From: a virus
Lineage: Duplodnaviria > Caudoviricetes
Length of the DNA: 63,343 nt
Virus record (IMG/VR): IMGVR_UViG_3300033153_005229
Span: 1 to 63,343 of that record
Strand: one strand, 5' to 3'
Shown here: positions 1,359 through 21,970 of the stretch, one piece after another
How the letters are laid out: each line of letters begins with the position of its first letter
Numbering within the stretch: the stretch's first letter is position 1
Made by a program: the position numbers and the translations under genes
Notes under the pieces: generated by a model
Database searches by the model: none
The model's input: only the letters and a program-made list of their open reading frames with translations
What the model was told of the DNA's origin: nothing

Positions 1359-3887
1359 CTATTTCACTTCCTTTAACTCCGACCATATTTTACCTGCCTC
1401 AGCATCGGTAATCATCGGAACCTTCATCTTAAATCCAAAGTATTTCTTCGTTGGTATATTCTCCGCTATCTTCTTCATCATCTTAACAAAGTTCTTAACC
1501 TGACCAGTTGGAACCTCAAATAACATCGAATCATATACGGTATTTATAAAGTGAACATCCTCCGGAATATACCTATGACCTCCAATATAACCACCAGAGA
1601 TTAATAATGACATAAGAGTAAAGTCCGCTGCTGTTCCCTGAATAGGGCTATTAACCGATTGACGTTTTGCTTCTTCCCTGACCCACTTCTTATCGGATTT
1701 TAAGTCTGGGAGGTATCTTCTCCTTCCAAAGAGTGTTTCTGAATATCCTCTTTTTATAGCCTTTCTTTGTAGTTTGTGAATTGACTGTTCTATTTTAGGG
1801 AATAGTTCGAAATATTCATTTTTAAATGTTCCAGCCTCAGCTGGGTCTACGAATATGCCTTTCTTAGGGGATGATAGATTCTTAGCGAGAGTAAGATCAC
1901 CTACACAATATATAATACCGAAGTTAATAGTCTTCGCCCTTTTCCTCTTGGCCTTGGATATATCCTCACTTCGGAACATCTTCTTAGCAACTGCCAAGTG
2001 AACATCCTCACCATCGTTAAACCATCGAATCATCTCTTTGTCATTAGCCATGTGGGCCTTCACCCTTAACTCGGCCTGACTGTAATCAATCTCAACGATC
2101 TTATATCCAGGTGGAGCGATAAACATTGTCTTTATAAATGCCTTAAGAGGAGAATCAAAGTCTTCCTCAGTATCAACATAGACTCGTGGTATATTCATTA
2201 TATTAGGCTCAGTACATGATGGCCTACCTGTCCTTGTACCATGTATCTTAACATTAGGCCTAACTCTACTATCCGGACCGATGTGCTTCCACATACCCTT
2301 AACAAATGTGGAGTGAAGTGTCCTCACCTTTCCATATTCAATAAGGGTTGTCAATACCTTTGGATTACACTTCTCCTTAAATATGAGATCTACCAAAACT
2401 TCTTCGGCAGTAGAATCCCCTCCAGCCTTTGTCTTTACTAAAGAGGGGAAGTTAAATCCGTGTCGGGAAAATAATAACTTAGATTTCTGAGGGGCTGAAT
2501 TAAAGTTAATCTCAAAGTCCTCACCCTTTTTCTTCCTCATATATTTAAGAAATTTCTTGCACCCCTTAAATTTCATCAAGTCCTTATACATATTCTTAAG
2601 GACCTTCTGGAATTTCTTATCTAATTTTTCAAGTTGCTCGGTGTCGATAAGCATCCCTCTTGATTCCATATTAACAAACAGAGGTACAGCTGGCATTATC
2701 AGAGTATCAAAAACTCTCCTAAGCTTCGGTATCTTATCGAGTTCCTTATCGAATATGGGGTATAAATCAAGTAGAGCTGCACAGTCAGTTGCGTTGTACT
2801 TACCTAATTTATCTAAGGGGATATCAAAAGCATTCCCCTTCTTTATTCCTAACTCATCAACATCCTTCCAATATTGACCATAGTTAGTATACTCCAGAGA
2901 AAGAGAGTCCAGGTCATGTCGACTGTTTATATATAATACATAGTGGGCTAGCATAGTATCAAAGATAGGACCTCTAAGATCTATCTTAGCCCTCCACTTT
3001 AACCAACGCCAGTCAAACTTCATGTTCTGACCGACCTTTAAGATATCCTCGTTCTGGAATATACGAGTTCTCAGTAATTTGTATATTACCTTTATATCAC
3101 TTCTACTGAATGGTGATTCAGAATGGAATATGGGAATGCAAACTCCGGTTCCTTTCTTCCATGAAATACCGATAGTACATATAAGCGCCCCATCACGCCA
3201 TTCCTTAGTCCCATTGGTTTCTAAATCAAATGCTGCGACGCCAGCCTTCTCCACCTTATCACATACCTTACTGACTTCATCAATAGTCCTTATTATCTTC
3301 CAGCGGGCGTCTTCATGGATTGTTCCTCCCCTCACGAATTCAAATCCCTTCTCCAGGTCTCCAGCTAAGTACTCTAGATTACCTGGGTTACGTAAGACGC
3401 CTGCTGGATGAAAAGTTGGCATAACCATGGCCGACCATCCATCACCAGAGTAATCAAATGACCTCCCTCTATATTTTGTTATACCACTTCTCTTTATTAT
3501 GGCTTTCATAGGTACATTACCCATTGGGATAATAAGACTAGGTTTTATTAAATCAAGTTCAGCCTGAAGGTAAGGTAAACAGGTTTTAATCTCATCGTTG
3601 GATGGTGTTCGATTATCAGGAGGTCGACAGTGGACTACATTGGTAATATATATGTCCTCTCTATTAACCCCTAACTCAATTAGTATCTCATCCAACAATT
3701 TACCTGAACGTCCGGCAAATGGTTTACCGATGTCATCCTCCCTGAATCCTGGAGCTTCACCAATAAGGACAACATCGGCTTTAAGGTTACCCCTTCCAAG
3801 TAAACAGACATGTTGAGCTGTATCACCTAGCTTACATGATTCACAACTACTATCTCTGATGTTAGACCATTTTTTTGATAACTTCAT
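1359..3887 (-). CDS. polA: Family A DNA polymerase with N-terminal family-4 uracil-DNA glycosylase domain and 3'-5' exonuclease (SPO1-type architecture)
   Basis: UDG: CESC, GEAPG, PFAGRSG, NVVHCRPPDNRTP, HPA. Exonuclease: FDLET, QNMKFD, YNATD. Polymerase: TGRPS, motif A DYSQAELR, motif B KTINFGIIY, motif C VYDS. Confidence 0.95.
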   Translation of the reverse strand: MKLSKKWSNIRDSSCESCKLGDTAQHVCLLGRGNLKADVVLIGEAPGFREDDIGKPFAGRSGKLLDEILIELGVNREDIYITNVVHCRPPDNRTPSNDEIKTCLPYLQAELDLIKPSLIIPMGNVPMKAIIKRSGITKYRGRSFDYSGDGWSAMVMPTFHPAGVLRNPGNLEYLAGDLEKGFEFVRGGTIHEDARWKIIRTIDEVSKVCDKVEKAGVAAFDLETNGTKEWRDGALICTIGISWKKGTGVCIPIFHSESPFSRSDIKVIYKLLRTRIFQNEDILKVGQNMKFDWRWLKWRAKIDLRGPIFDTMLAHYVLYINSRHDLDSLSLEYTNYGQYWKDVDELGIKKGNAFDIPLDKLGKYNATDCAALLDLYPIFDKELDKIPKLRRVFDTLIMPAVPLFVNMESRGMLIDTEQLEKLDKKFQKVLKNMYKDLMKFKGCKKFLKYMRKKKGEDFEINFNSAPQKSKLLFSRHGFNFPSLVKTKAGGDSTAEEVLVDLIFKEKCNPKVLTTLIEYGKVRTLHSTFVKGMWKHIGPDSRVRPNVKIHGTRTGRPSCTEPNIMNIPRVYVDTEEDFDSPLKAFIKTMFIAPPGYKIVEIDYSQAELRVKAHMANDKEMIRWFNDGEDVHLAVAKKMFRSEDISKAKRKRAKTINFGIIYCVGDLTLAKNLSSPKKGIFVDPAEAGTFKNEYFELFPKIEQSIHKLQRKAIKRGYSETLFGRRRYLPDLKSDKKWVREEAKRQSVNSPIQGTAADFTLMSLLISGGYIGGHRYIPEDVHFINTVYDSMLFEVPTGQVKNFVKMMKKIAENIPTKKYFGFKMKVPMITDAEAGKIWSELKEVK

Positions 3888-4414
3888 TAATAATATTCCT
3901 CAAGACCAGCTTTAAGAGAAGAACCACCCAAAACTACAATACCATTACTAATCATGTAATCAATACCATCAGTCTTTCTATATTTTTCCAGGTATACTAC
4001 CCGAACTATACCCGACATAACAACCACCTTGGCACATGATAGACAAGGTGATAGGGTAGTATATAGTGTTCCACCTTCGATTGATATACCGGCCCTCGCT
4101 GCCCAAGCAATGGCATTAGCCTCAGCATGAAGAGTAGCTACACAACCACCATCATCCCCAGTTATACATCCATCATCAATACAATGTTTACTACCAGGAG
4201 GACTTCCAGTATATCCCATTGAGACCGGACGCTTATCCTTAACTATAATACATCCGGCAAACTGCCTCCGCCGACAGCTACTTCTATATGAAACCAATCT
4301 GGCCATCGCCATAAACATTCTATCACGATGGATTCTCATATCCTTCCCATCCGGACCAAGGTACTTATTGGCATCCGGATGAAATAGTAAATCCTCAACA
4401 ATTCTTTTGGGCAT
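3887..4414 (-). CDS. dCMP deaminase
   Basis: HAEANAI and PCLSC Zn motifs; SMGYTGSPPGSKHC. Confidence 0.93.
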   Translation of the reverse strand: MPKRIVEDLLFHPDANKYLGPDGKDMRIHRDRMFMAMARLVSYRSSCRRRQFAGCIIVKDKRPVSMGYTGSPPGSKHCIDDGCITGDDGGCVATLHAEANAIAWAARAGISIEGGTLYTTLSPCLSCAKVVVMSGIVRVVYLEKYRKTDGIDYMISNGIVVLGGSSLKAGLEEYY

Positions 4415-5145
4415 TACAATGTTCCCATCTGCATAAACTGCTTAATTTTACCCTCATCCTTCTTGTAGTAATGGATAGATGAAGCGTTCATATAAAACCA
4501 TCCCGGAATTATCCTTATTCGTTGAGCCATATAAGTTAACATCCGAAGAGCTAGATAAACATCATTTGAAAAGTGAGTAACAAAATCGGTACTTCTCATA
4601 TTATATATAATGTTCAACCGAGGTTGTTCACCAACATAAGTAACAATGAAGTGATAGAATATTGAACAAGGAACTCTCTTCTCTCCGACATTAACTGGGT
4701 CGATTCTTGGGTTCCAAATTGACATAATAGCCTGTCGAGAGTTGAGATCATTCTCAAGTATAGAGATTATCTGTTCGAGCTGAGGTTGGATTCTTTCATT
4801 GTAAGTATACCCAAACTTACCCGCATGAAGGAACTCCTCCCAAATTTCTTTTCTCAGTAACCAAGCATCACCCGGATTGATTGGCATCGGGTCGATTCTT
4901 TCTTGGAACTCAGCATCAGCCCATTTCTTCACTCGTGGTCCCGTCCCTGGAACCTTAAAGAGGTTACCGGTATCATTCCAGTCGGTTAGGCAAAATGAAT
5001 AGTTGATTAGTTCCTTCGTATCAAACTCAGGATTACCCTTAATCACCTTATCCTGCATTGTCCTTGTTTTACGCTCAACACCTAACTCGAGTAGGTCCCG
5101 AGCAGTCTCGTTAAGCATGTCAATACATCGTTTGTACATACGCAT
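4414..5145 (-). CDS. Thymidylate-synthase-fold protein, dCMP (hydroxy)methylase-like
   Basis: YTYNERI, SRQAIMSIW, catalytic RVPC, MRSTDFVTHFSND, SIHYY. Start moved to ATG 5145, downstream of SD AAGGAG. Confidence 0.85.
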   Translation of the reverse strand: MRMYKRCIDMLNETARDLLELGVERKTRTMQDKVIKGNPEFDTKELINYSFCLTDWNDTGNLFKVPGTGPRVKKWADAEFQERIDPMPINPGDAWLLRKEIWEEFLHAGKFGYTYNERIQPQLEQIISILENDLNSRQAIMSIWNPRIDPVNVGEKRVPCSIFYHFIVTYVGEQPRLNIIYNMRSTDFVTHFSNDVYLALRMLTYMAQRIRIIPGWFYMNASSIHYYKKDEGKIKQFMQMGTL

Positions 5146-8349: not shown

Positions 8350-8811
8350 ATGTCCAAGAAAGAAATCAACCTCAGCGAGAAGGCCAACTCAAAAAAGGCC
8401 AAGAAGAATCCCAAATCAAAAAAGGCTACTGAAGTGGTCGGAACAAAGGAAGTCGCCAAACACCTCGAGATCAGCCCATTCAGTCTTCGGCAGATTCTCC
8501 GGTCAGAAGGTTTCTTCCCAGATGGAGGATACACCAGGTACGGCTTCAAATCCCTTAAAGACCCAATCGTTAAGAAGCTTGAAGGGATAGTCGAGAAAAG
8601 GAAAACAACCAAGGCCAAATCCAAAAAGAAAATTAGGAAAACAACCAAGGCCAAATCCAAAAAGAAAATTAGGAAAACAACCAAGGCCAAATCCAAAAAG
8701 AAAATTAGGAAAACAACCAAGGCCAAATCCAAAAAGAAAACCAAAAAGGACAGGGCCAAGGATAAGGTAAAATGGGCAGTTAAAACAGCCACCCACCGAC
8801 CGGTTAGGTAA
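8350..8811 (+). CDS. HTH DNA-binding protein with histone H1-like Lys-rich repeat tail
   Basis: VGTKEVAKHLEISPFSLRQILRS HTH; about 4 copies of KTTKAKSKKKIR; SD AGGAGG; own promoter and terminator. Confidence 0.75.
   Translation: MSKKEINLSEKANSKKAKKNPKSKKATEVVGTKEVAKHLEISPFSLRQILRSEGFFPDGGYTRYGFKSLKDPIVKKLEGIVEKRKTTKAKSKKKIRKTTKAKSKKKIRKTTKAKSKKKIRKTTKAKSKKKTKKDRAKDKVKWAVKTATHRPVR
8599..8740 (+). repeat. Perfect 36-bp tandem repeat, about 3.9 copies (coding)
   Basis: AGGAAAACAACCAAGGCCAAATCCAAAAAGAAAATT at 8599, 8635, 8671 and partially at 8707. Confidence 0.95.
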
Positions 8812-8859: not shown

Positions 8860-9402
8860 TTATAATGAAGGATTGACAACGTATTGTGTAGATACAGGGA
8901 TATATTCCCTAACCTTATCGAGTATGGTAGTAAGTTCCTTTCTGGATATCTCAACTGAATCCAGAATCGCTTTTCTCTTTATTATCTCAGGACCTTCCAC
9001 CTCCAGCATCCGGTCAAGGATATATCGTTCATCCTTATCCAGCATAGACCTGAGATGACCGAGAGCTAAGCTTACGTATATTTCATATACCTGATTTGGG
9101 TCGGCTGTATGGAAGGCTTCAGTTAGATCGACTACAATCCCTGTATTTTTCTTGAAGTGAGATTTCCTTATAAATCCATTATATAAATTTGATAAGCTCG
9201 TGTAACAAGCTTTTATTATATCGGAAGTCCTTCGGTCGGCATATTTCCTAAAGGTATTAATTACCTTCATTCTACCTTCCTGAGCAAGGTCCTCTCGGTC
9301 CATACCCAAAGACTTCACAAATGTTTTACTAGAAAGGTTTACGATTAATTTCTCTAAACTTCCTAACACGAGCATCATCCTAATATCTGTGTTTCCCCCC
9401 AT
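8860..9402 (-). CDS. Sigma-factor-like protein (ECF-size, regions 2 and 4)
   Basis: MDREDLAQEGRMKVINTFRKY (region 2.2-like), SLSNLYNGFIRK (2.4-like), MLDKDERYIL (4.1-like). Confidence 0.6.
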   Translation of the reverse strand: MGGNTDIRMMLVLGSLEKLIVNLSSKTFVKSLGMDREDLAQEGRMKVINTFRKYADRRTSDIIKACYTSLSNLYNGFIRKSHFKKNTGIVVDLTEAFHTADPNQVYEIYVSLALGHLRSMLDKDERYILDRMLEVEGPEIIKRKAILDSVEISRKELTTILDKVREYIPVSTQYVVNPSL

Positions 9403-9886: not shown

Positions 9887-10432
9887 TTATATTTTTCCAA
9901 TGGTAGTAATAACTTCCCAAAAATAAAATAACGATGGTTCTCGTTCACACCAAAACCTTATATTATCAATCTGATTCTCCAATCTTCTACGAGTAACCTT
10001 AAAAGAACCTTTTCTAACTATCTTTGATCGGCTCCATCTTCTAAATAAATACTCTGCTATTTCTCCACCTTCTCTATCAGTCTTTTCTACTATCATTTTA
10101 ATATCATCAGCGAAATTAGCGTGTCGGTGGTATACTATATAAGCCTTGAGAGCGCTAGAGAGCCGTCTAATACGCTTCGCTGCTGTCTTCGTACTACCAA
10201 TGGATATATTCTTTTTAAGCGTCTTATACGACGCATTCTGGAAGAATCTAAAAAAGAGGAGATTCACCTCATCCTCAGTAAGAAAATCAACTGCCTTATT
10301 ACAAGCTTCCTTTAGTTCTGATATAGATTCATCTTTATCCGATTTAACTAAACGATTAGCTATATTTTCAAGGGGGATAAAATCTTGAACCCTATCATAT
10401 ACGTCATCTTTGGACGAACTCGACATAATCAA
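9887..10432 (-). CDS. Sigma region-4-like HTH transcription regulator
   Basis: AVDFLTEDEVNLLFFRFFQNASYKTL...TAAKRIRRLSSALKAY resembles sigma70 r4; no region 2 recognisable. Confidence 0.5.
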   Translation of the reverse strand: MIMSSSSKDDVYDRVQDFIPLENIANRLVKSDKDESISELKEACNKAVDFLTEDEVNLLFFRFFQNASYKTLKKNISIGSTKTAAKRIRRLSSALKAYIVYHRHANFADDIKMIVEKTDREGGEIAEYLFRRWSRSKIVRKGSFKVTRRRLENQIDNIRFWCEREPSLFYFWEVITTIGKI

Positions 10433-10928
10433 CCCCTAAATCACAAACTATTGGCCTATTAAATATATATAGTTCAACCATTATAACTCCAGCTTTTCTC
10501 ACTCCAACCACCTCACCAGAAAGACCACTAAATCCACCGTCCTTTACGACTACCTCCCAACCAATAAATCTTTTAATATATTCCTCATCGTTCCTCACCT
10601 GATGGAAAGAATTCATTAAGCCTCTTTCCATTAACTTTATAAACTCAATTTGATAGTGCCGAACCGTTCTAGCTTCACCGGATATCATCAAAACCCTAAC
10701 AGGCATATATTCTTTAAGTATCGCATCAGTAAGTATCTCGCGGTCATATCTGAAAAACATATAATTAAACATCATTGGGATTTCTTTTATATTAATCACT
10801 CCATTATGAGACGACTTAGCCTGAACCATCGGACAGTAAATCTCGATGTCGAATTCCTCTTCCTCAATCACCTTCTTTATATCATCCAGTGATTTTGGGG
10901 GAAACATTATAACATACCAGTGTTTCAT
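10404..10928 (-). CDS. NusG/RfaH-family transcription elongation (antitermination) factor
   Basis: NGN domain KHWYVI...PMMFNYMFF; KOW domain VVVKDGGFSGLSGEV...IMVELYIFNRPIVCDLGVDYVE. Confidence 0.88.
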   Translation of the reverse strand: MKHWYVIMFPPKSLDDIKKVIEEEEFDIEIYCPMVQAKSSHNGVINIKEIPMMFNYMFFRYDREILTDAILKEYMPVRVLMISGEARTVRHYQIEFIKLMERGLMNSFHQVRNDEEYIKRFIGWEVVVKDGGFSGLSGEVVGVRKAGVIMVELYIFNRPIVCDLGVDYVEFVQR

Positions 10929-11470
10929 TTGTTATAATATTTATAGTAAGCTTTAACATCTTTAAAATGAGTTTTTGCTTCTAGTCGTCTCAACTCATCG
11001 GAACGAATAAGAACCATATCGGCTTGGTGAACGATATTAATGTGAATATGGTCAGTTGTCCTCACTCCATCTTCATCATATATCCAATTAAACAGTAGTC
11101 TCTCCATTCCAACTAACCAGAGCCCCCTTTCCATTCCATTATATCTAAAAAATAACAAAGGGACCTTGTTAACTTCTTTTGCATCTGAAGTAACTTGGTC
11201 CCAGAAATCAACAATAAGATTTTTTACATTACCAGTAAGAAAGTCTAAAATTTCAATTTTATTCTTCTTCCTTACTTTCACCTCAACAACATAGGGAAAT
11301 TTCTTAATTTTCTTTTCAGGTGGTACAATGTCACCCTTTATCCGATTATCATCTTTCCACTGAAGGCCACCTGAGGACGGAGTCCGATGAAAATCCCACC
11401 TCGTCCAGTCTTTGAAGAAATTAACAACACCTCGTTCACCTCTATTTCCCTTCTTCTTTGAGTTTACCAT
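10925..11470 (-). CDS. Holliday junction resolvase, PD-(D/E)xK (Hjc-like)
   Basis: MVNSKKKGNRGER...RTPSSGG...GDI...VEVK. Confidence 0.85.
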   Translation of the reverse strand: MVNSKKKGNRGERGVVNFFKDWTRWDFHRTPSSGGLQWKDDNRIKGDIVPPEKKIKKFPYVVEVKVRKKNKIEILDFLTGNVKNLIVDFWDQVTSDAKEVNKVPLLFFRYNGMERGLWLVGMERLLFNWIYDEDGVRTTDHIHINIVHQADMVLIRSDELRRLEAKTHFKDVKAYYKYYNK

Positions 11471-13349
11471 ATTCAACCACCCTTGATAATCCTTTATCAT
11501 TCTCTATTATTATCCTATCGTTGAAGTAATCCTTCAATCCTTGCTGATGGGTTATCAGAAACACGGAATCTTTCTCCTTTGATAATTCTAATACTAACTC
11601 AACCACCCTATCCGCTCCGGATAAGTCAAGTGATTCAAATGCCTCGTCCAATATTAATAAACGAGTCGGCTTGGAGCCCCTAGAGGCCACTAGGTCGCGT
11701 AAAGCAAGGGCAACACATATATCCACTCGTCGCTTTTCCCCACCAGATATAAGGCCATAAGACTGACCCCCTTTTTCTTTCCGACATTTAAGTAATACCT
11801 TCTCTACGGTATCACCTTTCTTTAGTTTAATGTTTATTGTACCACCTGTAAGAATGCTGCTGTAATAATTTGCCTTATCATTTATAAACGGAATTACTGA
11901 ATTAACAACAAGTGATTTTATACCTCGATTTGAGAATCCCTCTTTCCAGAATTCGTAGTATTCTATTTCAAGTTCCACCTCATCCATCTTCTCTTGAATA
12001 CCTGTATGTTCTAATTCCAATAATCTTACCTGAGTATTCATATCATTAAGATGTGATATCTTATATTCATCCCTTTTAGAATAATATCTAACTGATTCAA
12101 ACACCAAATCCAGTTTCTCGTAAAGTGAACATATCTTTATCAACGTCTTTTCGGACCGAGAGAGATTTTTCCGGGCTGAAGATAGGTCATTTAAGAGACT
12201 AATTTTCTTAGCTCGAGTTATATCTAAGGCAGCATCCTTTTCAACTAACCTATTTCTCTTCCTCTCTAATATCTTTATCTTCCTATCCATCTTTTTAAGT
12301 TCTTTGTGGACAGAAGCCATATATCTCTTAGCCGCTTTCTTCGTTATAACCTGACCACAAGTATCACATTCATATCCAACGGATAGTTCGTCATGGTGTT
12401 TTCTTACTCCATACTCCTCAACTAAGTTACTAATCTCTAGACCTAACCTTTCAATATCACCTTTATATTCTGGGATATCACCTATATCATCAAGTTGTTT
12501 TGAGATTCGTTTTATATCCCCATCTGGATTAAAAGGAAGAACCTCCGATTCTAATTTATTTATCTTAATCTGGATATCAGTAATTTGGTCCAAGGTAGTA
12601 TAGACAGAGCCAAGATTATCCTGGGTCCTTATATCCTGAACGCGTAACTCATTCCTTATTGATTTCTTTAAATCAGATTTCTTAGAGTAAAGTAATAACT
12701 CCCTATCTCGTAAATATATTCTCTTCTTTTCAAGTTCTTTTAATATATCAGACACCTTTTTATATCCGGTTGTAAGGTAATCAAAATTAAGGACGCCTTC
12801 GAGGATGTCCTTAATTTCCCTATCAGATGAAGTTGATATTCTCTTTATTGAACCTTGCCCAAATATTATAGAATTTATAAAGGTCTTATAATCAAGGCCA
12901 AGGAGGGACTCAATGAAGCGTCCGGTCTGCTTACAGGAGGACAGAGTCAGATTTCTCCACTTCGTCCCTCCATTACCGGCCTCGCTCTGAAGCTGGGAGG
13001 AATCAGAGTATTTCTTTATAAAAACCTTATTCTTATATTTTTTATGCTTCCTATATCTCTTTATCCGATATCTCTCGTTATTGATGGTTACATCTACATA
13101 TCCATAGCAATTCTTACCAATTGACTCATTTATAATATCATCCTTAGAGTTAGACTCCTTAAGAGTTTTACCAAATAGAATCCAGGGGAGGGCCTCGGAG
13201 AAAAGGTTAGACTTACCAGCCCCATTACTATCAAATGAAGTTGAATCACTTACTATACCCTCAACCAAGGTACAACCTGGAATGCTCAAATCAATCTCCG
13301 CTTTTCGGAAGGACATAAAGTTCTGTATTTTCAACTTTCCAAATTTCAC
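11442..13349 (-). CDS. sbcC: SbcC/Rad50/gp46-like recombination ATPase
   Basis: Walker A SNGAGKS, Zn-hook CDTCG, signature SGGEKRR, Walker B ILDEAFESLD, ITH. Confidence 0.93.
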   Translation of the reverse strand: MKFGKLKIQNFMSFRKAEIDLSIPGCTLVEGIVSDSTSFDSNGAGKSNLFSEALPWILFGKTLKESNSKDDIINESIGKNCYGYVDVTINNERYRIKRYRKHKKYKNKVFIKKYSDSSQLQSEAGNGGTKWRNLTLSSCKQTGRFIESLLGLDYKTFINSIIFGQGSIKRISTSSDREIKDILEGVLNFDYLTTGYKKVSDILKELEKKRIYLRDRELLLYSKKSDLKKSIRNELRVQDIRTQDNLGSVYTTLDQITDIQIKINKLESEVLPFNPDGDIKRISKQLDDIGDIPEYKGDIERLGLEISNLVEEYGVRKHHDELSVGYECDTCGQVITKKAAKRYMASVHKELKKMDRKIKILERKRNRLVEKDAALDITRAKKISLLNDLSSARKNLSRSEKTLIKICSLYEKLDLVFESVRYYSKRDEYKISHLNDMNTQVRLLELEHTGIQEKMDEVELEIEYYEFWKEGFSNRGIKSLVVNSVIPFINDKANYYSSILTGGTINIKLKKGDTVEKVLLKCRKEKGGQSYGLISGGEKRRVDICVALALRDLVASRGSKPTRLLILDEAFESLDLSGADRVVELVLELSKEKDSVFLITHQQGLKDYFNDRIIIENDKGLSRVVEYGKLKEEGK

Positions 13350-14359
13350 CTTATCAAATCCAATCCAGTATCTATAAGCTTGGATAAATCAAAACCTATA
13401 CTAGCCTTGGCATACTTAACAATTACCTCTTCCTTCGATAGGCCAACTTCCATTTTTTTATAATCTATCTTTTCTTCACCTTTCCCCTCTACTACAAACT
13501 CCACCCGGTCTCCATAGTTACCATCAGGTATATCATTTACTGTTACACGGAAATAGTTATATTCATCTCCAATTCTTTTGTATTCTTCAAAGCTATCACA
13601 TATAATAAACTCAGGATACTTACCTTTCAGAGAATGGAATTTCGCCTTATCATTTATAGAATTATATGTATATACTCCACAGTGATTACCTCGTTCACCA
13701 AAATGAAGTTGTAGAGGTGGACCTGGAATATACAATCTATTCAGTTTTTGGTGCTTGTGGATATGACCACACCATACCTTATCAAACATATTCCCATACC
13801 TATGATTATCAAAGTCTATACCCTCTTCAAATATATATCCCATTGGGCTACTAGAGCCAAATGGTGTTGAATGGGTGAATAACATAATCTGTTGGCTCGG
13901 TAATATCTTCTTCAGTCCGAAATCTTCAAGTGATTTTATCTGATTGTCTGGAGTATCCCAGGGAAGGAAGAATAAGGTCATATCTTCAATATGGACCCTA
14001 TTGGGATTTACAAACACTTCAAATCCAAAATCACCAAGGAAATCAAGTGAACAAACATTACCCCCATCATCATAGTAGTCATGATTACCAGCTACTGCAA
14101 ATTTATACTCTACACTTTCGAGATACTCGCTGCATGATATCAGACATTCCCTTGAAGTATTAAAAGTATCAACGTCAATTAAACGACGGCTATGGAACCA
14201 ATCACCACCAAATATAATACAACCACATTCCTCTTTTTCGAATATATCCATTATATCCATAAATATCTTGCACGTATCTTCCAATCTTCTTCTTCCATCA
14301 GCACCCGAAAATGGTTTGTGCTTGTGGAAGTGTATATCTGTAAAATATCCTATTTTCAT
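13346..14359 (-). CDS. sbcD: SbcD/Mre11/gp47-like metallophosphoesterase nuclease
   Basis: TDIH, GGDWFH, GNHD, GHIH; start moved to MKIGYF at 14359. Confidence 0.92.
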   Translation of the reverse strand: MKIGYFTDIHFHKHKPFSGADGRRRLEDTCKIFMDIMDIFEKEECGCIIFGGDWFHSRRLIDVDTFNTSRECLISCSEYLESVEYKFAVAGNHDYYDDGGNVCSLDFLGDFGFEVFVNPNRVHIEDMTLFFLPWDTPDNQIKSLEDFGLKKILPSQQIMLFTHSTPFGSSSPMGYIFEEGIDFDNHRYGNMFDKVWCGHIHKHQKLNRLYIPGPPLQLHFGERGNHCGVYTYNSINDKAKFHSLKGKYPEFIICDSFEEYKRIGDEYNYFRVTVNDIPDGNYGDRVEFVVEGKGEEKIDYKKMEVGLSKEEVIVKYAKASIGFDLSKLIDTGLDLIR

Positions 14360-14381
14360 ATCGTATATATAAAATGCTACC

Positions 14382-15152
14382 TTAAAAAATATTAAGGGTA
14401 TCAACCGGAATGGATTTCATCTTATTTACCCCAGTTACAATTCTCTTTATCCTTTCGGCTTGGGCAAACTTCCTTGGTACATCATCAATATACCGAGAAA
14501 GATTCCTCTCAACATCACCTAAATATCCAATCTTTTCTTTACCTGTTACCGACAGACCTATCTCCTCGAAATCAAATACCTTAATCAAAGCCGGAGCCAT
14601 CACAGCACTCTGATATAGTACATTTGATATCAACTCAATATGGACTAACCTAGTTCGAAATTCACTATGTCCCTTAAATATAAAATCTATAATCTTAGTA
14701 AATAGAATATAATCAACAGCCATCCGTCGACTCACTTCGGCTACTCTTGTATAGAATGTAAAACTCCATGGATGTTTTTTAAAGGCACGAATAACAAACC
14801 CGAGTAAACAAGAACCTGTGGATAAGAAAGAGGGAGTAAATGTATAGGGAAGAACTATTGCATCCATTCCTTTATCAACTCTCTTCCAGAGTGTATCTCT
14901 AAGCCAGATAAGTTGTTCCTTATTGATATATTTTTTTATCAGGTCTGTCCACTTCTTATTAGTATACCCAAGCTGGCTCCCTATATCAATACTAACTTCA
15001 GGCTTAAATATGGTTATAGAATTATCAAAAGAAAAAGCTCTAGAACCAGATTTACTTTCAACAATGTCACTATGTGAGTCTGGGTTAAGGAACAATAGAT
15101 TTATACCTTTCCAGGCTTCATCAAAGTTATTCCATACTATATTGTTTAACAT
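14382..15152 (-). CDS. Divergent second thymidylate-synthase-fold protein
   Basis: FDEAWKGIN...LGYTNKKWTDLIKKYI...GSCLL...FYTRVAEVSRRMAVDY; the Cys and R-x2-E-x7-D spacing parallels the TS active-site motifs. Confidence 0.55.
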   Translation of the reverse strand: MLNNIVWNNFDEAWKGINLLFLNPDSHSDIVESKSGSRAFSFDNSITIFKPEVSIDIGSQLGYTNKKWTDLIKKYINKEQLIWLRDTLWKRVDKGMDAIVLPYTFTPSFLSTGSCLLGFVIRAFKKHPWSFTFYTRVAEVSRRMAVDYILFTKIIDFIFKGHSEFRTRLVHIELISNVLYQSAVMAPALIKVFDFEEIGLSVTGKEKIGYLGDVERNLSRYIDDVPRKFAQAERIKRIVTGVNKMKSIPVDTLNIF

Positions 15153-15165
15153 ATTTTCCCCAGAA

Positions 15166-15870
15166 TTAGTATTTTGTGTCTTGGCGGAACTCATTTACTT
15201 TACTCTTCTTAAAATAGATGTCATATATCTTATCTCCCATAAAGTTCATGGAAGCACACAGTATAAAGAAGTAATAGTAAACTAACTGAAGAATGTGGCA
15301 GAACTTAACCTCGTCGGTTTCCACTTCGGATTGTTTCCATCTTTTATTTTTAAGAGTGTTACCAAGAAGGCCAAGCTGGTAGATTATCGGAAATGATAAA
15401 TCAGCAAAGAAGGAGTAAGGCGTATCACCTATATGGGTATTTCTCTTCTCCACTCTATACAGATGAGCAAGAATAATGTCGAGTGGGTCTCCATCTTTAC
15501 CTGAAACATATTCTTTCTCTATTAATCTTAAATCTTTCATCATACTGTATATAATCTCTTCATCATATCCGGCCAGTATCGTAAGCTCCAAAAGAAAGTG
15601 GAAAGCATCCGATATCTCCTCTTCAAAAAGAATCTTATCAGAGTCATTTCCCTTTATAAGGTATTCGGCTGCTTCCATCAACTCCTCCACAATCCTCCAA
15701 CAGAAGTCCTTCAACCAAGCCTGAGCATCCTTTTCCTGTATTCCCATTGGAATAGAAGGCATCCCTTCGATTTCTTTATATTTGTGAACTAGGTTCTTCT
15801 GTATACCAAACATAGTTTCAAGTTTGTTACTCGTTTTTGGTTTAACTTCAGTTACGTTCCTTGAATCCAT
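15166..15870 (-). CDS. All-alpha (dimeric dUTPase/MazG-like) dNTP pyrophosphatase
   Basis: WRIVEELMEA...EEEISDAFHFLLEL; KNKRWKQ; IYFKKSKVNEFRQDTKY. Confidence 0.82.
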   Translation of the reverse strand: MDSRNVTEVKPKTSNKLETMFGIQKNLVHKYKEIEGMPSIPMGIQEKDAQAWLKDFCWRIVEELMEAAEYLIKGNDSDKILFEEEISDAFHFLLELTILAGYDEEIIYSMMKDLRLIEKEYVSGKDGDPLDIILAHLYRVEKRNTHIGDTPYSFFADLSFPIIYQLGLLGNTLKNKRWKQSEVETDEVKFCHILQLVYYYFFILCASMNFMGDKIYDIYFKKSKVNEFRQDTKY

Positions 15871-16922: not shown

Positions 16923-18503
16923 CTACCATGAAACTATTTTTGGTTTGAATCCATCCCTAACATATATCTTCTTCCTGTAATCAGAATGGCGCTTTAATAA
17001 CCTATAACTAGTATCATAAAAATCATATACATCTACAGTGTTCTTATTTTCTGACCTCCGAAGGCCACGACCGAAGGTCTGAAGGATAGTATTCGGAGAT
17101 GACTCACCACAGGCTAAAACTAGAATATCAATACAGGGTATATCAATCCCCTCCTTATATATCATAGTCGCAATCAATTCTTTTATTTCACCAGATATAA
17201 ACTTGGACTTTACCTCATCCCTCCTTTCAGGTGTATCATCCCCATTTATATAAGTAGCCTCTGGACGTCTACTCTTTATGAATTCTCCATGTTCTTTCTT
17301 TATAACAATTGTAAGGATTGACTTACCTTTGTTTTTCTCATAAATATCTAAAAGGGGTTTTAACCTGTGGGAAGATGTCGAAACCCCTTTACTATAAACT
17401 AAACTATACAGCTTAGTCCTAGCATTCCTTACTAACCTTTCACAGTTCTCAGCCTTCAATATATTATTATCCTGTTCAGCCTCAGCCTTCTCTTGCAACA
17501 ACCATCTTATAGTATCAGATAATTTACTAACTTCTCTATCCTTATTTAATTTTGAACACTTGTACTTATACATTATTATATTGGGACTAGCTGAGTATTG
17601 GTTATCAACTAAAAACTTATTTGTAATCTTCTTATATAGAATCGGACCAGATAAACCTACTAAAGAAACATTCCTTATACTACCTGATTGAAAGGCTGTT
17701 CCTGACATTGCAAAAACTGAGTAAGGATTTGCTTTTTGTAATACCCAGCTCCATGAGGGAGCTGGCAAGTGATGGGCCTCATCAACAATGATACAATCAA
17801 ATGATTTTAATATATCACTAGTCTCTTTACTATCCTTACGAGCGTAAAAGGTTGTTATCATCCCAACAGTCACAGGAGTTATATTATCATTCTTCACGTT
17901 ATATATACCAATAGGAGTATTCAAATATTTGCCATACCAATTTACAACTTGACTAAGGATTTCATGACGATGGCATAGATACAACACAGACATTCTATCT
18001 TCTAGACCTCTACAAATAGCGGCACTTATTAAGCTCTTACCAGCGTTTGTCGCTGCATATACTATCCCCCTAAGGAATGGAATATCCTCTTTTACAAACT
18101 TACGAGTGACAGCATTAAAAGCAATCTCATACTGATAGTCCCTTAATTCCTTATCACCAATTACTGTTGGAATGTTATTGGCAAGACTCTCGGCCCAGTT
18201 ATCCTGAGTAAATATCTTCGGCACTCCCTTCCTCTCGTCTACCAATTCTGGTAATCCATAACTATTCTTTATAAAGTTATAAATTCGTGGAAGTAGACCA
18301 ATGGGAAAAGTATTTCCACTACTAAGGAAACAAACTTTACCATCCCACAACCCTTTCTTATATTTATAAGTATGAACTGACTCCGGGTCGAATAGGGACA
18401 TATATTCATGGAGTACCCTAATAACATCCTCCCTCGCTTCTATCTTCGCCCTATCTTTTCTTACGATTCTTATTCTTACGGGAGAGCTTCTTTCGGACTT
18501 CAT
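16923..18503 (-). CDS. SF2 DExH helicase (UvsW-like)
   Basis: LRDYQ, ATNAGKS, DEAHH, MSGT, EGIDIP, QTFGRGLR; start at ATG 18503 after GGAG. Confidence 0.92.
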   Translation of the reverse strand: MKSERSSPVRIRIVRKDRAKIEAREDVIRVLHEYMSLFDPESVHTYKYKKGLWDGKVCFLSSGNTFPIGLLPRIYNFIKNSYGLPELVDERKGVPKIFTQDNWAESLANNIPTVIGDKELRDYQYEIAFNAVTRKFVKEDIPFLRGIVYAATNAGKSLISAAICRGLEDRMSVLYLCHRHEILSQVVNWYGKYLNTPIGIYNVKNDNITPVTVGMITTFYARKDSKETSDILKSFDCIIVDEAHHLPAPSWSWVLQKANPYSVFAMSGTAFQSGSIRNVSLVGLSGPILYKKITNKFLVDNQYSASPNIIMYKYKCSKLNKDREVSKLSDTIRWLLQEKAEAEQDNNILKAENCERLVRNARTKLYSLVYSKGVSTSSHRLKPLLDIYEKNKGKSILTIVIKKEHGEFIKSRRPEATYINGDDTPERRDEVKSKFISGEIKELIATMIYKEGIDIPCIDILVLACGESSPNTILQTFGRGLRRSENKNTVDVYDFYDTSYRLLKRHSDYRKKIYVRDGFKPKIVSW

Positions 18504-19347
18504 CCCAATACTCCTTATCTGAGTCTGAATCCAATTCATCTGGCTCCATCTTAACCATTCCCTGCTGAAGTCGGTCAATTGCTTTATCAGTAACTAGATT
18601 ACTTATCCTTGGAAATGTATCAAACGCCTTAAAAGCTTCAAACTGTATATCAAAAAATTGTTTTATACTAACATGATTATCCCTCATTATCTTATCAATC
18701 TCCTCAACAAAAACATGTTGAGGTGAACCTGGAAGAAGCTTTGTACTGTAGGGTCGTTTAGTTATTTTAATTCTCCTCCGAGTGTAAGCCTTAAATATTT
18801 TCTTCTGTCGAGGTGTTACCGTTGATGTACTTTGTCTTATTAAAGAATCCATCAACTCATCTATATTATATAATATAGAATTTAGAAAAGCCGATTTCTT
18901 ACCCATCTTCCTTGCGAGTCCTTCTGATTCATTAAATAATTTCACCGCAAGAGTTGCTATATCTGAATTCATCTCAGTCGCATATCTTTCCAAGATTCTC
19001 TTTATCTGAACCAAAGTAACCCATTGACGGTTATCATTCATTATTCTATTATGACCAAAACGATTCTTTCCACGCTGATGATTAAACCATATTAATGAAA
19101 GTTGCCTGGTCATATCTGGTGTATCATCATAATGCCTACTGTTTGGATTTAAAATAGATTTAAGACTTGGTTGTCGAACGCGACTGCGTTCGGATGAACT
19201 GCCGGAGGCAGTAAATCTCCTTGATGGTATTCCAGCTTTGGCTATCCTAATAAATGCCCTTACGGCTATTTTTGAATCAACTCCTAGTTCAACAATTTGT
19301 TTTCTAAAATTATTTAGGTCAATTTTTATTGTTGGATTCTTTTTCAT
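18451..19347 (-). CDS. Hypothetical basic protein, possibly replication-associated
   Basis: ATG 19347 downstream of the 23-mer/SD element; divergent from DnaB. Confidence 0.6.
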   Translation of the reverse strand: MKKNPTIKIDLNNFRKQIVELGVDSKIAVRAFIRIAKAGIPSRRFTASGSSSERSRVRQPSLKSILNPNSRHYDDTPDMTRQLSLIWFNHQRGKNRFGHNRIMNDNRQWVTLVQIKRILERYATEMNSDIATLAVKLFNESEGLARKMGKKSAFLNSILYNIDELMDSLIRQSTSTVTPRQKKIFKAYTRRRIKITKRPYSTKLLPGSPQHVFVEEIDKIMRDNHVSIKQFFDIQFEAFKAFDTFPRISNLVTDKAIDRLQQGMVKMEPDELDSDSDKEYWDEVRKKLSRKNKNRKKR

Positions 19348-19353
19348 TTTTGT

Positions 19354-19376
19354 TCCTTTCACTATTATTAAATGCT
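19354..19376 (-). promoter_or_regulatory. Putative phage promoter/RBS element (copy 2)
   Basis: Identical to 5158-5180. Confidence 0.65.
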
Positions 19377-19538
19377 ATTTTGAAAATTACCCAGATAAAA
19401 ATGCGGATGACTTTTAATCCGCTTATAGTATTACAGAGTAATACCGCGCGCGCGTACGAGCGAGAAAAGCTCTACACTATTATAAATATTAGATTGCATT
19501 ATATATTTATACTAACGACGAGTAGGAAAGGAACCCAG
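19377..19538. other. Candidate replication origin / divergent control region
   Basis: Strand switch; GCGGAT-N8-ATCCGC hairpin (19403-19422); (CG)5 run at 19445-19454; AT-rich flank; next to helicase and primase. Confidence 0.4.
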
Positions 19539-20852
19539 ATGGATAGGTACACTTTTGGAAATGATTTCCAAGAAATGATTTTATCATATATATTAAATAA
19601 CCATGAAGTAATAACTGGCCTTAGGTCCGTAGTAAAACCTAATTATTTCTCATTACCAGTCCACAGAGACCTTTGTAAAATGGTAATGGAATTTATTGGT
19701 AGGTACAAGTCATCTCCAAACAAGAAGGAGTTGATAGAACTAATAAAAGACAAATATGTCGAGAAGAAAAACACCAAGGAGATGATTCAGGTAGCAAAAG
19801 AATTATATGCCATAAAACTAAAGAATATAAAATATATCAAGGACCAGATAATAGGATTTGCTCAGTTCAGTTCCATGAAAGAAGCTATAGTAGATAGCTC
19901 AGAGTTGGTCGGTAGTTATGAAAATCATATACAGATAAAGAAACGTATATCAGAAGCACTAAAGGTTGGTATGGACTCTAAAAAATCAGGGTCCTTTTTA
20001 TTTGAGGGGGCAACTGACCGCATCCTCGATAGGGAGTTAAAAGGAATAGACCATAACCGCGTAACCACAGGACTAAAAGAATTGGACAGACAAATGGGTG
20101 GTGGTTTAGATATTGGTGAACTGGGTGTAATCCTAGCACCGCCTAAGGGATTTAAGACTGGAATTCTAACCAACCTCGGTGTTGCCGCGATGGGACACCA
20201 GAAGAGGGTAGTTCACTTTACCCTTGAGGTATCTGAAACAAACCAGATGTTAAGGTATGAACGAAGAATTGCTGGGCTCAACAAACGAGAAATAATATCT
20301 AACTCCAAAAGACTCGAATCCAGGTTAGAGATGATGGAAAAACTCGGTGGTGGTTTGGTCGTTAAGGGATTTCCAATAAAATCTGTTACGGTAGGACATC
20401 TAAACGAACATCTAGACTTCCTAGAAACTGAGGGATTTAAAGCGGACGTCGTAATCGTTGACTATGGTGATATTGTAAAGCCTTCTTCCAGTGGGGAGAA
20501 ACGTAATCAGATAGCAGATATATACATGGACTTAAGGGCCTTAGGCCAAGAAAGGAAGGTTAGAGTTTGGACCGCTTCTCAAGCCAATAGGAAAGCAACT
20601 GGAAAGAGAGTTATAAGAAAAGACGATATAGCTGAGGCATTCGAGAAGGTGGCCATCGCCGATTGTGTAATTGCTCATTGCCAAACCAAAGAGGAACGTC
20701 TCCTAGAAATACCACAAGCGCGTTTATTTATGGCAGCAAATCGAGAAGGTGAAGAGGGTGGTATCACTTATATCCAAATCGACTATAATAAAATGATGAT
20801 TAGAGAAATGAAGAAAAATAAACGTTCCAAGGAAAGGGGTAATTATGTATAA
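19539..20852 (+). CDS. dnaB: Replicative DnaB-like helicase
   Basis: TTGLKELD...GGLDIGELGVILAPPKGFKT, HFTLE, VIVDYGD, WTASQANR, IAEAFEKVAIAD; start moved to ATG 19539 after AGGAAAGGA. Confidence 0.93.
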   Translation: MDRYTFGNDFQEMILSYILNNHEVITGLRSVVKPNYFSLPVHRDLCKMVMEFIGRYKSSPNKKELIELIKDKYVEKKNTKEMIQVAKELYAIKLKNIKYIKDQIIGFAQFSSMKEAIVDSSELVGSYENHIQIKKRISEALKVGMDSKKSGSFLFEGATDRILDRELKGIDHNRVTTGLKELDRQMGGGLDIGELGVILAPPKGFKTGILTNLGVAAMGHQKRVVHFTLEVSETNQMLRYERRIAGLNKREIISNSKRLESRLEMMEKLGGGLVVKGFPIKSVTVGHLNEHLDFLETEGFKADVVIVDYGDIVKPSSSGEKRNQIADIYMDLRALGQERKVRVWTASQANRKATGKRVIRKDDIAEAFEKVAIADCVIAHCQTKEERLLEIPQARLFMAANREGEEGGITYIQIDYNKMMIREMKKNKRSKERGNYV

Positions 20853-21039
20853 TCCTTTCCTTCCCATATTTTATACCTCGGATGACTTAGGTGATTTCCT
20901 TCTCGGAAAACAAGACTTCTATCTCGGAAAGCCTTTTTTAAAAAGGGCCCTTTTAAGATTAGAAGGTCCAATTTTAATTCCAGCTTATTTATATTATTAT
21001 AATCTTGGTTGGTTGGATTCATTTTATGAGCAAAATTGA
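20845..21039 (+). CDS. Small hypothetical protein
   Basis: Fills the gap and overlaps both DnaB and primase; purine-rich SD. Confidence 0.5.
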   Translation: MYNPFLPIFYTSDDLGDFLLGKQDFYLGKPFLKRALLRLEGPILIPAYLYYYNLGWLDSFYEQN

Positions 21040-21970
21040 TATATCAGGATATCTCGTCAATCGGTTTGGTGCTGTGTACCGGAACGAGAACTGGCGAATG
21101 AATTGTCCCTTCTGTTCTGATAATCAAGAAAGACTCGGTATCAGTATCGAGAAGTCGGTTGCTCACTGCTTCAAGTGTGGTTATACCTCAAGTGCTGTTA
21201 ATTTCGTAAAACAAGCCGAAGACGTAAGTTTATCAGAAGCGTATAAAATTATCTACGAATACGCTAAAATAACACCAAAAAGTATATATAGAGCGGAGCC
21301 TACCCGTCGTAGATTAAAGCCAAAGCTCCAGAGCTATGTACCACTCCGGAAAAGCACTCGCCCGTTCACTACGGAGTCTCTAGCCAGAAAGTATCTCATG
21401 ACTAATCGTAGGATGACTTCTCGGGAAATAAAGCTCTGGCAGATAGGTCTATCCAATGATAAAGCTTATCTTGGACGAGTGATTATACCGTTCATAGAAA
21501 ATAAGAAATGGCGATACTTTACGGCTCGTAAGTTTCTGGGTGGCGGACCAAAATACCTGAATCCCCCGAAGGGCATGTTTGAGGATGGTAAATCAGACCT
21601 ATTATATAATATATCCATCGCATCTAAGTATGATGAAGTAATAATAGTAGAAGGAGTATTTGATGTATTCGCTACGGGATTTAATGCTGTTGCAATATCT
21701 GGTAAAAACCTATCCGATGTTCAATTCTCTAAATTAATTTTATCAGGATTTAAAAAAGCGACGATTATGTTAGACTCAGACGCTAAAGAAGAAGCCTATG
21801 AAATGGCCTCAAGGATTGATGAGATAATACCAACTAATATAATAAACATAAAAAAGGGGGACCCGGCTAGTAACCGAGACCCCCTAGGAGGTAACATCCA
21901 TAAAGGACGCCCAGAGAGATTTAAGCTTTCCTCATACCTCCGAAAGAAAATCGGGAAATTCCGGCGTTAG
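21026..21970 (+). CDS. dnaG: DNA primase (Zn finger + TOPRIM)
   Basis: CPFC...HCFKC; GRVIIP; KYLNPP; VEGVFD; MLDSDA. Confidence 0.92.
   Translation: MSKIDISGYLVNRFGAVYRNENWRMNCPFCSDNQERLGISIEKSVAHCFKCGYTSSAVNFVKQAEDVSLSEAYKIIYEYAKITPKSIYRAEPTRRRLKPKLQSYVPLRKSTRPFTTESLARKYLMTNRRMTSREIKLWQIGLSNDKAYLGRVIIPFIENKKWRYFTARKFLGGGPKYLNPPKGMFEDGKSDLLYNISIASKYDEVIIVEGVFDVFATGFNAVAISGKNLSDVQFSKLILSGFKKATIMLDSDAKEEAYEMASRIDEIIPTNIINIKKGDPASNRDPLGGNIHKGRPERFKLSSYLRKKIGKFRR

Follow-up and report, generated by a model that had tools for sequence, protein, structure and literature searches.

An Asp-type thymidylate-synthase-fold enzyme in a conserved phage gene module, and its probable role in cytosine modification

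Gene content of the locus

The window analysed here, 63,343 bp in length, is an entire IMG/VR phage record (IMGVR_UViG_3300033153_005229). The gene in question encodes a thymidylate synthase (TS)-fold protein, TS1, and is followed on the minus strand by genes for a dCMP-deaminase-family enzyme and a DNA polymerase A (PolA). A second block carries the genes for a divergent TS-fold protein, TS2, and for an all-alpha nucleoside triphosphate (NTP) pyrophosphohydrolase. These features are as follows.

4414..5145 (5145->4414), minus strand: TS1, thymidylate-synthase-fold, Asp-type, 243 aa; PF00303 E 4.3e-14
3887..4414 (4414->3887), minus strand: dCMP-deaminase-family enzyme, 175 aa; PF00383 E 1.9e-20; phrog_174 E 2.9e-48; ComEB model 119.9 bits, below its cut-off of 219
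1359..3887 (3887->1359), minus strand: DNA polymerase A with an N-terminal uracil-DNA glycosylase (UDG)-superfamily domain and a 3'-5' exonuclease, 842 aa; PF03167 3.1e-34, PF01612 1.7e-23, PF00476 9.7e-84
14382..15194, minus strand: TS2, 270 aa; TS fold, with Cys129, Arg150 and Asp161 (Arg+11) invariant
15166..15870, minus strand: all-alpha NTP pyrophosphohydrolase, putatively T4 gp56 (dCTPase/dUTPase)-like; PF08761 E 1.5e-6; phrog_12184 E 1.6e-19

TS1 starts with the ATG at 5145, about 9 nt downstream of AAGGAG, and the alignment of its family begins at the same Met. Its PF00303 score of 52.7 bits, against a cut-off of 24.3, places it in the TS superfamily, and it is the only PF00303 match in the record. 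Neither ThyX (PF02511) nor dihydrofolate reductase (DHFR, PF00186) was matched anywhere in the record by Pfam profiles, and the other 69 open reading frames (ORFs) of the window gave Pfam matches to no additional TS, kinase or glycosyltransferase. The profile search of the record thus agrees with an earlier sequence-only reading, according to which neither an Asn-type ThyA nor a ThyX is present.

The same reading had described TS1, the deaminase and PolA as translationally coupled. Base by base, both junctions are indeed TAATG: the TS1 stop and the deaminase start share one base at 4414, and the deaminase stop and the PolA start share one base at 3887. As evidence of a functional link, however, these joins say little alone, since overlaps are common in this genome: mechanical ORF calls give 71 junctions between genes of the same strand, and 35 of these overlap, including 8 with a single shared base. 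Conserved gene order is the stronger argument.

The specificity residue of TS1

The switch between Asn and Asp at TS position 177 (E. coli numbering) is an established specificity determinant, and in the passages of the study drawn on here Asp at this position marks metavirome contigs with modified cytosine (eLife 2021, PMC8670742). In TS1, residues 183-195 are MRSTDFVTHFSND, in which Arg184 and Asp195 are spaced by 11, as are E. coli R166 and N177. The claim that an Asp lies 11 residues after the conserved Arg, at the position of E. coli N177, was therefore borne out. The relevant codons are listed below.

4561..4563, minus strand: Asp195 codon (gat), specificity position (E. coli N177 / T4 D179); Asp in 180/180 homologues
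4564-4566, minus strand: Asn194 codon; Asn in 91/180 homologues only
4585..4596, minus strand: Arg184-Ser185-Thr186-Asp187 (E. coli R166-S167-C168-D169 motif); Asp187 is Asp in 179/180
4666..4668, minus strand: Cys160 codon, predicted catalytic nucleophile (E. coli C146 equivalent); Cys in 187/187 homologues
4675..4677, minus strand: Arg157 codon at Cys-3 (E. coli L143 / T4 D145 position); Arg in 187/187

The family-profile alignment comprises 191 TS1 homologues, and the N177 position is occupied by Asp in all 180 that are aligned there, 11 more being gapped. The sequence-only reading had allowed that an alignment might put Asn at the specificity site; by the family profile the residue is Asp, and a one-residue slip is excluded on the grounds of the alignment, because the preceding residue is Asn in merely 91 of the 180. 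In a smaller alignment of 42 homologues, C160, R184, S185, D187, H191, D195 and H225 are invariant. The family profile also ranks the N229D mutant of Lactobacillus casei TS (1njc, E 5.1e-18) above the wild-type L. casei enzyme, and D195 falls without a gap on the engineered Asp229.

The AlphaFold2 (AF2) model of TS1 has a predicted local distance difference test (pLDDT) score of 96.3 and superimposes on TS-fold structures with a root-mean-square deviation (rmsd) of 1.9-2.2 A over 206-220 residues. The VIA Z scores are 24.2 for AfhB of HY126 (rmsd 2.1 A, 218 residues), 23.0 for MilA (1.9 A, 220 residues) and about 21.8 for E. coli TS, so that the spread across the nearest structures is narrow; the Foldseek TM score against MilA is 0.81. 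In comparison with E. coli ThyA, the fold and the equivalents of Cys146, Arg166/Ser167, Asp169, Trp80, Tyr94 and His207 are kept, whereas Asn177, Leu143, His147, Arg127 and the 57-aa C-terminal tail of the E. coli enzyme correspond to Asp, Arg, Ser, Gln and a tail of 18 aa.

Asn at position 177, the mark of a ThyA, is thus replaced by Asp195 in TS1. The best score against the NCBIfam ThyA equivalogs is 53.7 bits, with a cut-off of 174.6, and the bacterial ThyA models gave 21-39 bits against cut-offs of 108-405. Judged from these features, it is likely that TS1 is not a ThyA, and the best reading is that the phage DNA contains modified cytosine.

Conservation of the gene module

Neighbourhoods were compared in 80 loci, the best among 483 confirmed IMG/VR relatives, with flanks of at most 10 kb per side; many of these loci are near-duplicates from one sample set. 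By tblastn, TS1 is accompanied by the pyrophosphatase in 79, by TS2 in 78 and by PolA in 75 of the 80 loci. A module of Tmk - gp56-like pyrophosphatase - TS2 - TS1 - (deaminase) - PolA is present in phages of Serratia, Pseudomonas, Mycobacterium, Microbacterium and Clostridium. The order Tmk - dUTPase_2 - TS2 - TS1 - deaminase - PolA is found in Serratia phage Serbin and in the mycobacteriophages NoShow and Muddy, and it is retained with inserted extra genes in Pseudomonas phage Lebethron and Microbacterium phage Huwbert. In the window the module is divided into two separate blocks and has no Tmk. A tblastn search of the window with six module kinases found no nucleotide kinase (best E 0.022), and the Walker A motifs of the window are confined to the terminase and primase ORFs.

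In Huwbert, a canonical Asn-type ThyA adjoins TS1, and TS1 and ThyA are hence not redundant. Canonical ThyA is missing in five of the six cultured relatives. The label 'hypothetical protein' given to gp45 of Muddy (KF024728, 4576-5118) looks incomplete, as this protein is matched to the family of dCMP deaminases (PF00383 E 3.9e-20).

The pyrophosphatase of the window has weak similarity to T4 gp56 (BLASTP E 5e-4 in that single comparison), with an identical C-terminal ending. The N-terminal ~170 aa of PolA contain GEAPG and HPAG motifs and several Cys residues. By its appearance, this domain is a complete uracil-DNA glycosylase of family 4 that has been joined to the polymerase, which would suit a phage that guards against uracil in the presence of its own deaminase.

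A second TS-fold protein

The 'second paralogue' mentioned in the sequence-only reading is real, for the product of 14382-15194 (minus strand) has the TS fold. TS2 gave no match in Pfam, NCBIfam or PDB sequences (profile search, none below E 0.1), the best Pfam E value for 17 TS2 members was 0.033, and its PHROG is recorded as function unknown. TS1 and TS2 showed no similarity by BLASTP (E 3.8), and a word-indexed search with TS2 confirmed TS2 itself alone (1 of 553 candidates). Their kinship is visible solely in profile and structure comparisons.

By hhalign, TS2 was matched to the TS1 family with E 2.1e-4 and 46% probability, or with E 1.2e-4 and 55% when 23 sequences were used, and Cys129, Arg150, Asp161 and Glu153 of TS2 were set on C160, R184, D195 and D187 of TS1. 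In TS2 homologues from the related loci, Cys129, Arg150 and Asp161 are invariant and Glu153 (Arg+3) is near-invariant; across 23 TS2 sequences, the invariant residues are limited to Tyr89, Cys129, Arg150 and Asp161. The AF2 model of TS2 has a pLDDT of 85.4. TS-fold structures lead among the Foldseek matches listed, with E values of about 1e-5 to MilA, T4 dCMP hydroxymethylase and AfhB. VIA Z scores are 14.9 for AfhB (rmsd 3.8 A, 186 residues), 14.1 for MilA and about 11 for ThyA, and a search of the ESM Atlas agrees with a TS fold.

In Serbin, Lebethron, NoShow and Huwbert, the 'hypothetical' genes in syntenic position encode TS2 homologues (hhalign probability 96.9%, E 2e-10). Among GenBank phages, TS2 was detected by tblastn in 13 records, identical to the 13 with the closest TS1. 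The annotation of the TS2 homologue of Clostridium phage CPAS-15 (7208-7957) as 'colanic acid biosynthesis glycosyltransferase' was rejected, as the TS2 family has the TS fold and no glycosyltransferase match.

From its conserved residues, TS2 looks like an active enzyme on a cytosine nucleotide. A more speculative proposal, to which we give little weight, is that TS1 and TS2 form a two-component system of two TS folds, making either a cytosine derivative beyond 5-methyl, 5-hydroxymethyl and 5-hydroxy, or a known one by a new mechanism. If this doubtful proposal holds, TS2 could perform a second catalytic step on a cytosine nucleotide, or it could complete the active site of TS1 across a heterodimer interface. 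Such a system would then have a wide distribution among phages of Proteobacteria, Actinobacteria and Firmicutes, with the therapy phage Muddy as one of its carriers.

Comparison with characterised Asp-type enzymes

The residue at Cys-3, the residue at the N177 position and the length of the C-terminal tail separate the enzymes into the following groups.

E. coli ThyA and Huwbert gp68: Leu at Cys-3; Asn at N177 position; tail 56-57 aa
T4 gp42: Asp at Cys-3; Asp at N177 position; tail 30 aa
Xp12 and PaMx74, the 5-methylcytosine (5mC) phages: Asn at Cys-3; Asp at N177 position; tail 63 aa
Window TS1, CPAS-15, NoShow, Muddy, Huwbert gp67, Serbin and Lebethron: Arg at Cys-3; Asp at N177 position; tail 10-21 aa

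T4 gp42 resembles TS1 in the TS fold, the catalytic Cys, the Asp at the N177 position and the short C-terminus. Moreover, the Asp-type TS of T4 is accompanied by a dCMP deaminase (cd), as in the window phage, and by the dCTPase gp56, of which the all-alpha pyrophosphatase of the window is a putative counterpart. T4 differs from the window phage in that it encodes a kinase, a ThyA, a DHFR and glucosyltransferases and lacks TS2. The TS genes of Xp12 and PaMx74 encode Asp at the N177 position and a [KR]-x-V-P-C active-site loop, as in TS1, and a deaminase gene follows immediately downstream in an overlapping arrangement; the order in both phages is TS, overlapping deaminase, DHFR. Upstream of the TS gene there is a pyrophosphatase gene in PaMx74 and a HAD hydrolase gene in Xp12. 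These enzymes differ from TS1 by the Asn at Cys-3, the ThyA-like 63-aa tail and the linked DHFR, and the two phages are without TS2. MilA, a CMP hydroxymethylase of a bacterial antibiotic pathway, is the second-best structural match of TS1; unlike TS1, it has Asp at both the N177 and the L143 positions.

Several observations weigh against a dCMP-modifying role for TS1 of the kinds characterised so far. In the portions of the source used here, the signature of hydroxymethylases is Asp/Glu at Cys-3 together with Ser/Thr at Tyr-2, and T4 D145N is inactive (PMC6400193); Asp145 and Ser94 of T4 gp42 are both described as required for water addition. In TS1, Arg157 takes the place of the acidic residue, and the T4 S94-x-Y96 marker corresponds, in the sequence register, to Tyr113-Thr114-Tyr115, with Tyr113 nearly invariant. 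Because both parts of the signature are replaced, T4-like water activation is not to be expected in TS1, and the missing acidic Cys-3 residue argues against T4-like hydroxymethylation. TS1 likewise lacks both traits of the proven dCMP methylases, a long tail and a linked DHFR, although these traits are taken from a comparison of two 5mC phages and not from a published definition. DHFR was found in none of 15 TS1-type records, in comparison with both 5mC phages, where the PaMx74 match lies below the Pfam cut-off and the call rests also on annotation. The C-terminal tail of E. coli TS is reported, in the same partial source, to seal the site for hydride transfer, with dihydrofolate as product (PMC6400193). 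Past the conserved His, TS1 has a tail of 18 aa (family median 12, range 9-24), and its model stops where residue 225 of 264 of E. coli TS aligns. The missing tail and DHFR would thus argue against methyl transfer by TS1. However, the top NCBIfam match of TS1 is a short archaeal 'thymidylate synthase' model that is aligned to its end, and therefore a short C-terminus may not exclude methyl transfer. To these points may be added that the equivalent of Glu58 was not placed in TS1, where the N-terminal halves align poorly with the references. The absence of a kinase in the window phage argues mildly for a small group that is accepted by host kinases, methyl over hydroxymethyl. No biochemical or nucleoside data on the Arg-type class were found in the literature searched. 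A search of titles and abstracts, with subscription journals outside it, found no reports on the DNA of module-bearing phages such as Muddy.

By its sequence markers, TS1 is a separate Arg-type class of Asp-TS, outside all three characterised classes, with 116 representatives below E 1e-30. Five representative homologues (P0069, P0092, P0099, P0102 and P0139) are 579-951 aa long, and their matches to the query are broken up into two or three segments, which suggests that they contain inteins or inserted homing-endonuclease domains.

Proposed pathway

The fold, the residues and the neighbourhood of TS1, as well as the conservation of that neighbourhood, were observed here, and the substrate is suggested by analogy through the Asp rule. 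TS1 is probably a dCMP-specific, C5-modifying member of the TS superfamily and not a dTMP synthase, and it probably acts within a conserved module for rewriting the pool of deoxypyrimidines.

The proposed scheme is as follows. The gp56-like pyrophosphatase would return dCTP (and dUTP) to the monophosphate. Cys160 of TS1 would then attack C6 of dCMP, while Asp195 would read and protonate the N3/N4 edge of cytosine. TS1, perhaps with the aid of TS2, would place on C5 a one-carbon unit donated by methylene-tetrahydrofolate or, with lower probability, a different group. The product would be raised to the triphosphate by host kinases, as the phage encodes none, and the adjacent PolA would substitute the modified nucleotide for C in the phage DNA. 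As an accessory enzyme of thymine supply, the deaminase would either provide dUMP for host ThyA, as T4 cd does, or deaminate part of the modified dC pool, in the manner reported for 5mC-selective deaminases. The scheme may be called T4-like because it involves the return of dCTP to dCMP, C5 modification, re-phosphorylation and incorporation by a linked PolA. As for the group that is added to dCMP, hydroxymethyl would be the first candidate, methyl the second and some other group the third, each on its own at less than an even chance.

The deaminase and the order of reactions

The sequence-only reading had offered two explanations, modified C in the DNA or a reversed order in which modification precedes deamination. 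Modified C stands as the best reading, whereas the reversed order had already been published in a 2024 preprint and is hence not new. The authors of this preprint propose that dTTP is formed via 5mdCTP (5-methyl-dCTP) deamination, which bypasses a dUMP-specific TS, and they cite older labelling data for Xp12 (bioRxiv 10.1101/2024.12.05.627091). In that work, IMG/VR was mined for genes of the dCMP deaminase family that lie in cis with a TS of the Asp type, the criterion by which candidate 5mC-selective deaminases (mSCD) were selected (bioRxiv 10.1101/2024.12.05.627091), and precisely this arrangement is found in the window record. The reversed order is therefore best regarded as a hypothesis already in print, which experiments support in part and, to date, for triphosphates.

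In the passages of the earlier study drawn on, genes for PRA-PH-type pyrophosphatases and dCMP deaminases accompany the TS genes of the Asp type (PMC8670742). In the sections of the preprint used here, a deaminase lies within 3 kb of the TS gene in 104 of 149 cases on modified-C contigs and in 17 of 277 on unmodified ones, PRA-PH and DNA_pol_A with its exonuclease are other common deaminase neighbours, the majority of deaminase-linked TS genes have Asp, and five of seven tested made 5-methyl-dCMP (5mdCMP) (bioRxiv 10.1101/2024.12.05.627091).

It is possible, though in our view unlikely, that the deaminase of the window prefers C5-modified dC nucleotides and yields T nucleotides from 5mC, or 5-hydroxymethyluracil nucleotides from 5-hydroxymethylcytosine, so that TS1 and the deaminase together replace ThyA. 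This concerns the role of the deaminase and is compatible with C5 modification of dCMP by TS1. It would fit with the absence of ThyA and ThyX from the phage, with a neighbourhood of TS1, deaminase and PolA that is the one reported for 5mC-selective deaminases, and with the same TS-deaminase pair in Xp12 and PaMx74. In the preprint sections used here, 34 of 194 soluble candidates chosen by such a neighbourhood showed clear 5mC selectivity (bioRxiv 10.1101/2024.12.05.627091). A deaminase is also present in six of six cultured module-bearing phages, adjoining TS1 or within about 1 kb of it in five, and most of these are the relatives without a canonical ThyA. However, the proven cases have a tail-bearing TS and a DHFR, unlike TS1. 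As far as the preprint sections used here report, 5mC selectivity is polyphyletic, with no published sequence marker from which it could be read (bioRxiv 10.1101/2024.12.05.627091). The deaminase of the window is slightly nearer to T4 cd (39% identity) than to the Xp12 deaminase (34%). The sequence-only reading had placed deamination at the level of the modified dCMP monophosphate; against this part, the sole enzyme characterised in vitro in those sections converts 5mdCTP to dTTP, and 5hmdCTP more slowly, and does not act on dCMP or 5mdCMP (bioRxiv 10.1101/2024.12.05.627091).

The distribution of the deaminase gene also bears on its role. By tblastn, a deaminase is found within 10 kb in 3 of the 80 related loci. 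In a scan of 20 whole relative records, 9 of which are at least 90% complete, PF00383 was matched anywhere in the record in 4 of the 20 and in 2 of the 9. Since the other seven of the near-complete relatives carry the TS1 family, together with TS2, and no deaminase, the deaminase is frequent yet dispensable, and the primary job of TS1 is independent of it. Furthermore, gp42, the dCTPase gp56 and the dUMP-forming cd coexist in the annotation of T4; because T4 pairs gp42 with a deaminase that makes dUMP, the presence of a deaminase alone does not imply a reversed order.

Alternative activities of TS1

TS1 might instead belong, with RB69 gp48 and AfhB of HY126, to the flavin-dependent 5-hydroxy-dCMP synthases. 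AfhB leads both the PDB profile matches of the TS1 family (E 1.8e-20) and the structure matches given above, and AfhB and RB69 gp48, like TS1, have Asp at the N177 position and are short, without a tail. However, the lead of AfhB over MilA and ThyA is just 1-3 Z units. Enzymes of this class are marked, in the part of the source drawn on, by Asn at the D169 position (PMC13326640), whereas TS1 retains Asp187 there, as do nearly all homologues (179/180). AfhB and RB69 gp48 also have Glu at Cys-3 where TS1 has Arg, and the ORFs scanned with Pfam were negative for glycosyltransferases. This activity is therefore considered very unlikely. Least likely is an ordinary dTMP-forming enzyme that follows the dCMP deaminase in the textbook order despite its Asp, for although TS1 adjoins a dCMP deaminase in a phage with no other TS and its homologues are labelled 'thymidylate synthase' in databases, the specificity residue is invariantly Asp, the C-terminal tail is missing, the scores fall far under the ThyA equivalog cut-offs and Huwbert retains a true ThyA beside TS1.

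Completeness of the record and other genes

The ends of the record carry a 114-bp repeat, which falls inside the (DDDDE)n-coding tail of one gene for a single-stranded DNA-binding protein (SSB) that reads across the record junction.

813 -> base 1, then 63343 -> 62969, minus strand: SSB gene; phrog_1192, E 6.7e-33

In the SSB, whose gene straddles the record ends, an acidic (DDDDE)n tail of great length precedes a terminus rich in Lys and Arg. Since the end repeat lies within one SSB gene that can be read through the junction, the record is a circular assembly, and it is probably a complete genome, although CheckV estimates its completeness at 65%. The 'direct terminal repeat' is in fact a tandem repeat within the coding sequence and so reflects circular assembly, and the length of the repeat is perhaps collapsed.

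A T4-like recombination and replication set is encoded on the minus strand at 823-1323, 11442-14404, 16923-18578 and 61902-62966. Its members are UvsY (PF11056), SbcC/Rad50-like and Mre11-like nuclease proteins of the gp46/47 type, a helicase of the UvsW type and a homologue of RecA/UvsX. The genes for DnaB and primase lie on the plus strand at 19329-21970. A phage NusG-like protein is encoded at 10404-10928 (minus strand; PF02357 E 2.6e-7), and small unannotated proteins near it, at 8860-9402 and 9887-10432, resemble sigma-factor or helix-turn-helix-type regulators by eye. The plus-strand ORF at 8350-8811 would encode a protein rich in Lys, in which KTTKAKSKKKIR is repeated four times in tandem and which resembles an excisionase weakly (phrog_2655, E 5.5e-4). 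This ORF is among the few on the plus strand in a minus-strand block and overlaps a longer mechanical minus-strand ORF, so that either strand may be the coding one. The baseplate/tail-fibre protein at 23857-25695 (minus strand) has Pfam matches to Laminin_G_3 and Toxin_R_bind_N (the N-domain of clostridial neurotoxin receptor binding) beside Tail_P2_I; it is a tail protein with a lectin-like jelly-roll domain and no toxin gene.

Significance

The combination of an Asp-type TS with a dCMP deaminase, an NTP pyrophosphatase and PolA is a signature of modified-cytosine phages that has already been published, as the passages of the two studies drawn on above describe. What stays unexplored is the Arg-type TS1 class, which the published residue rules assign to no product and which is tied to the unannotated TS2. 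The module is found in cultured, easily grown phages, including Muddy, which has been used in phage therapy. The nature of the bases in their DNA would matter for how they resist restriction and CRISPR, for artefacts in sequencing and for the discovery of new nucleotide-modifying enzymes.

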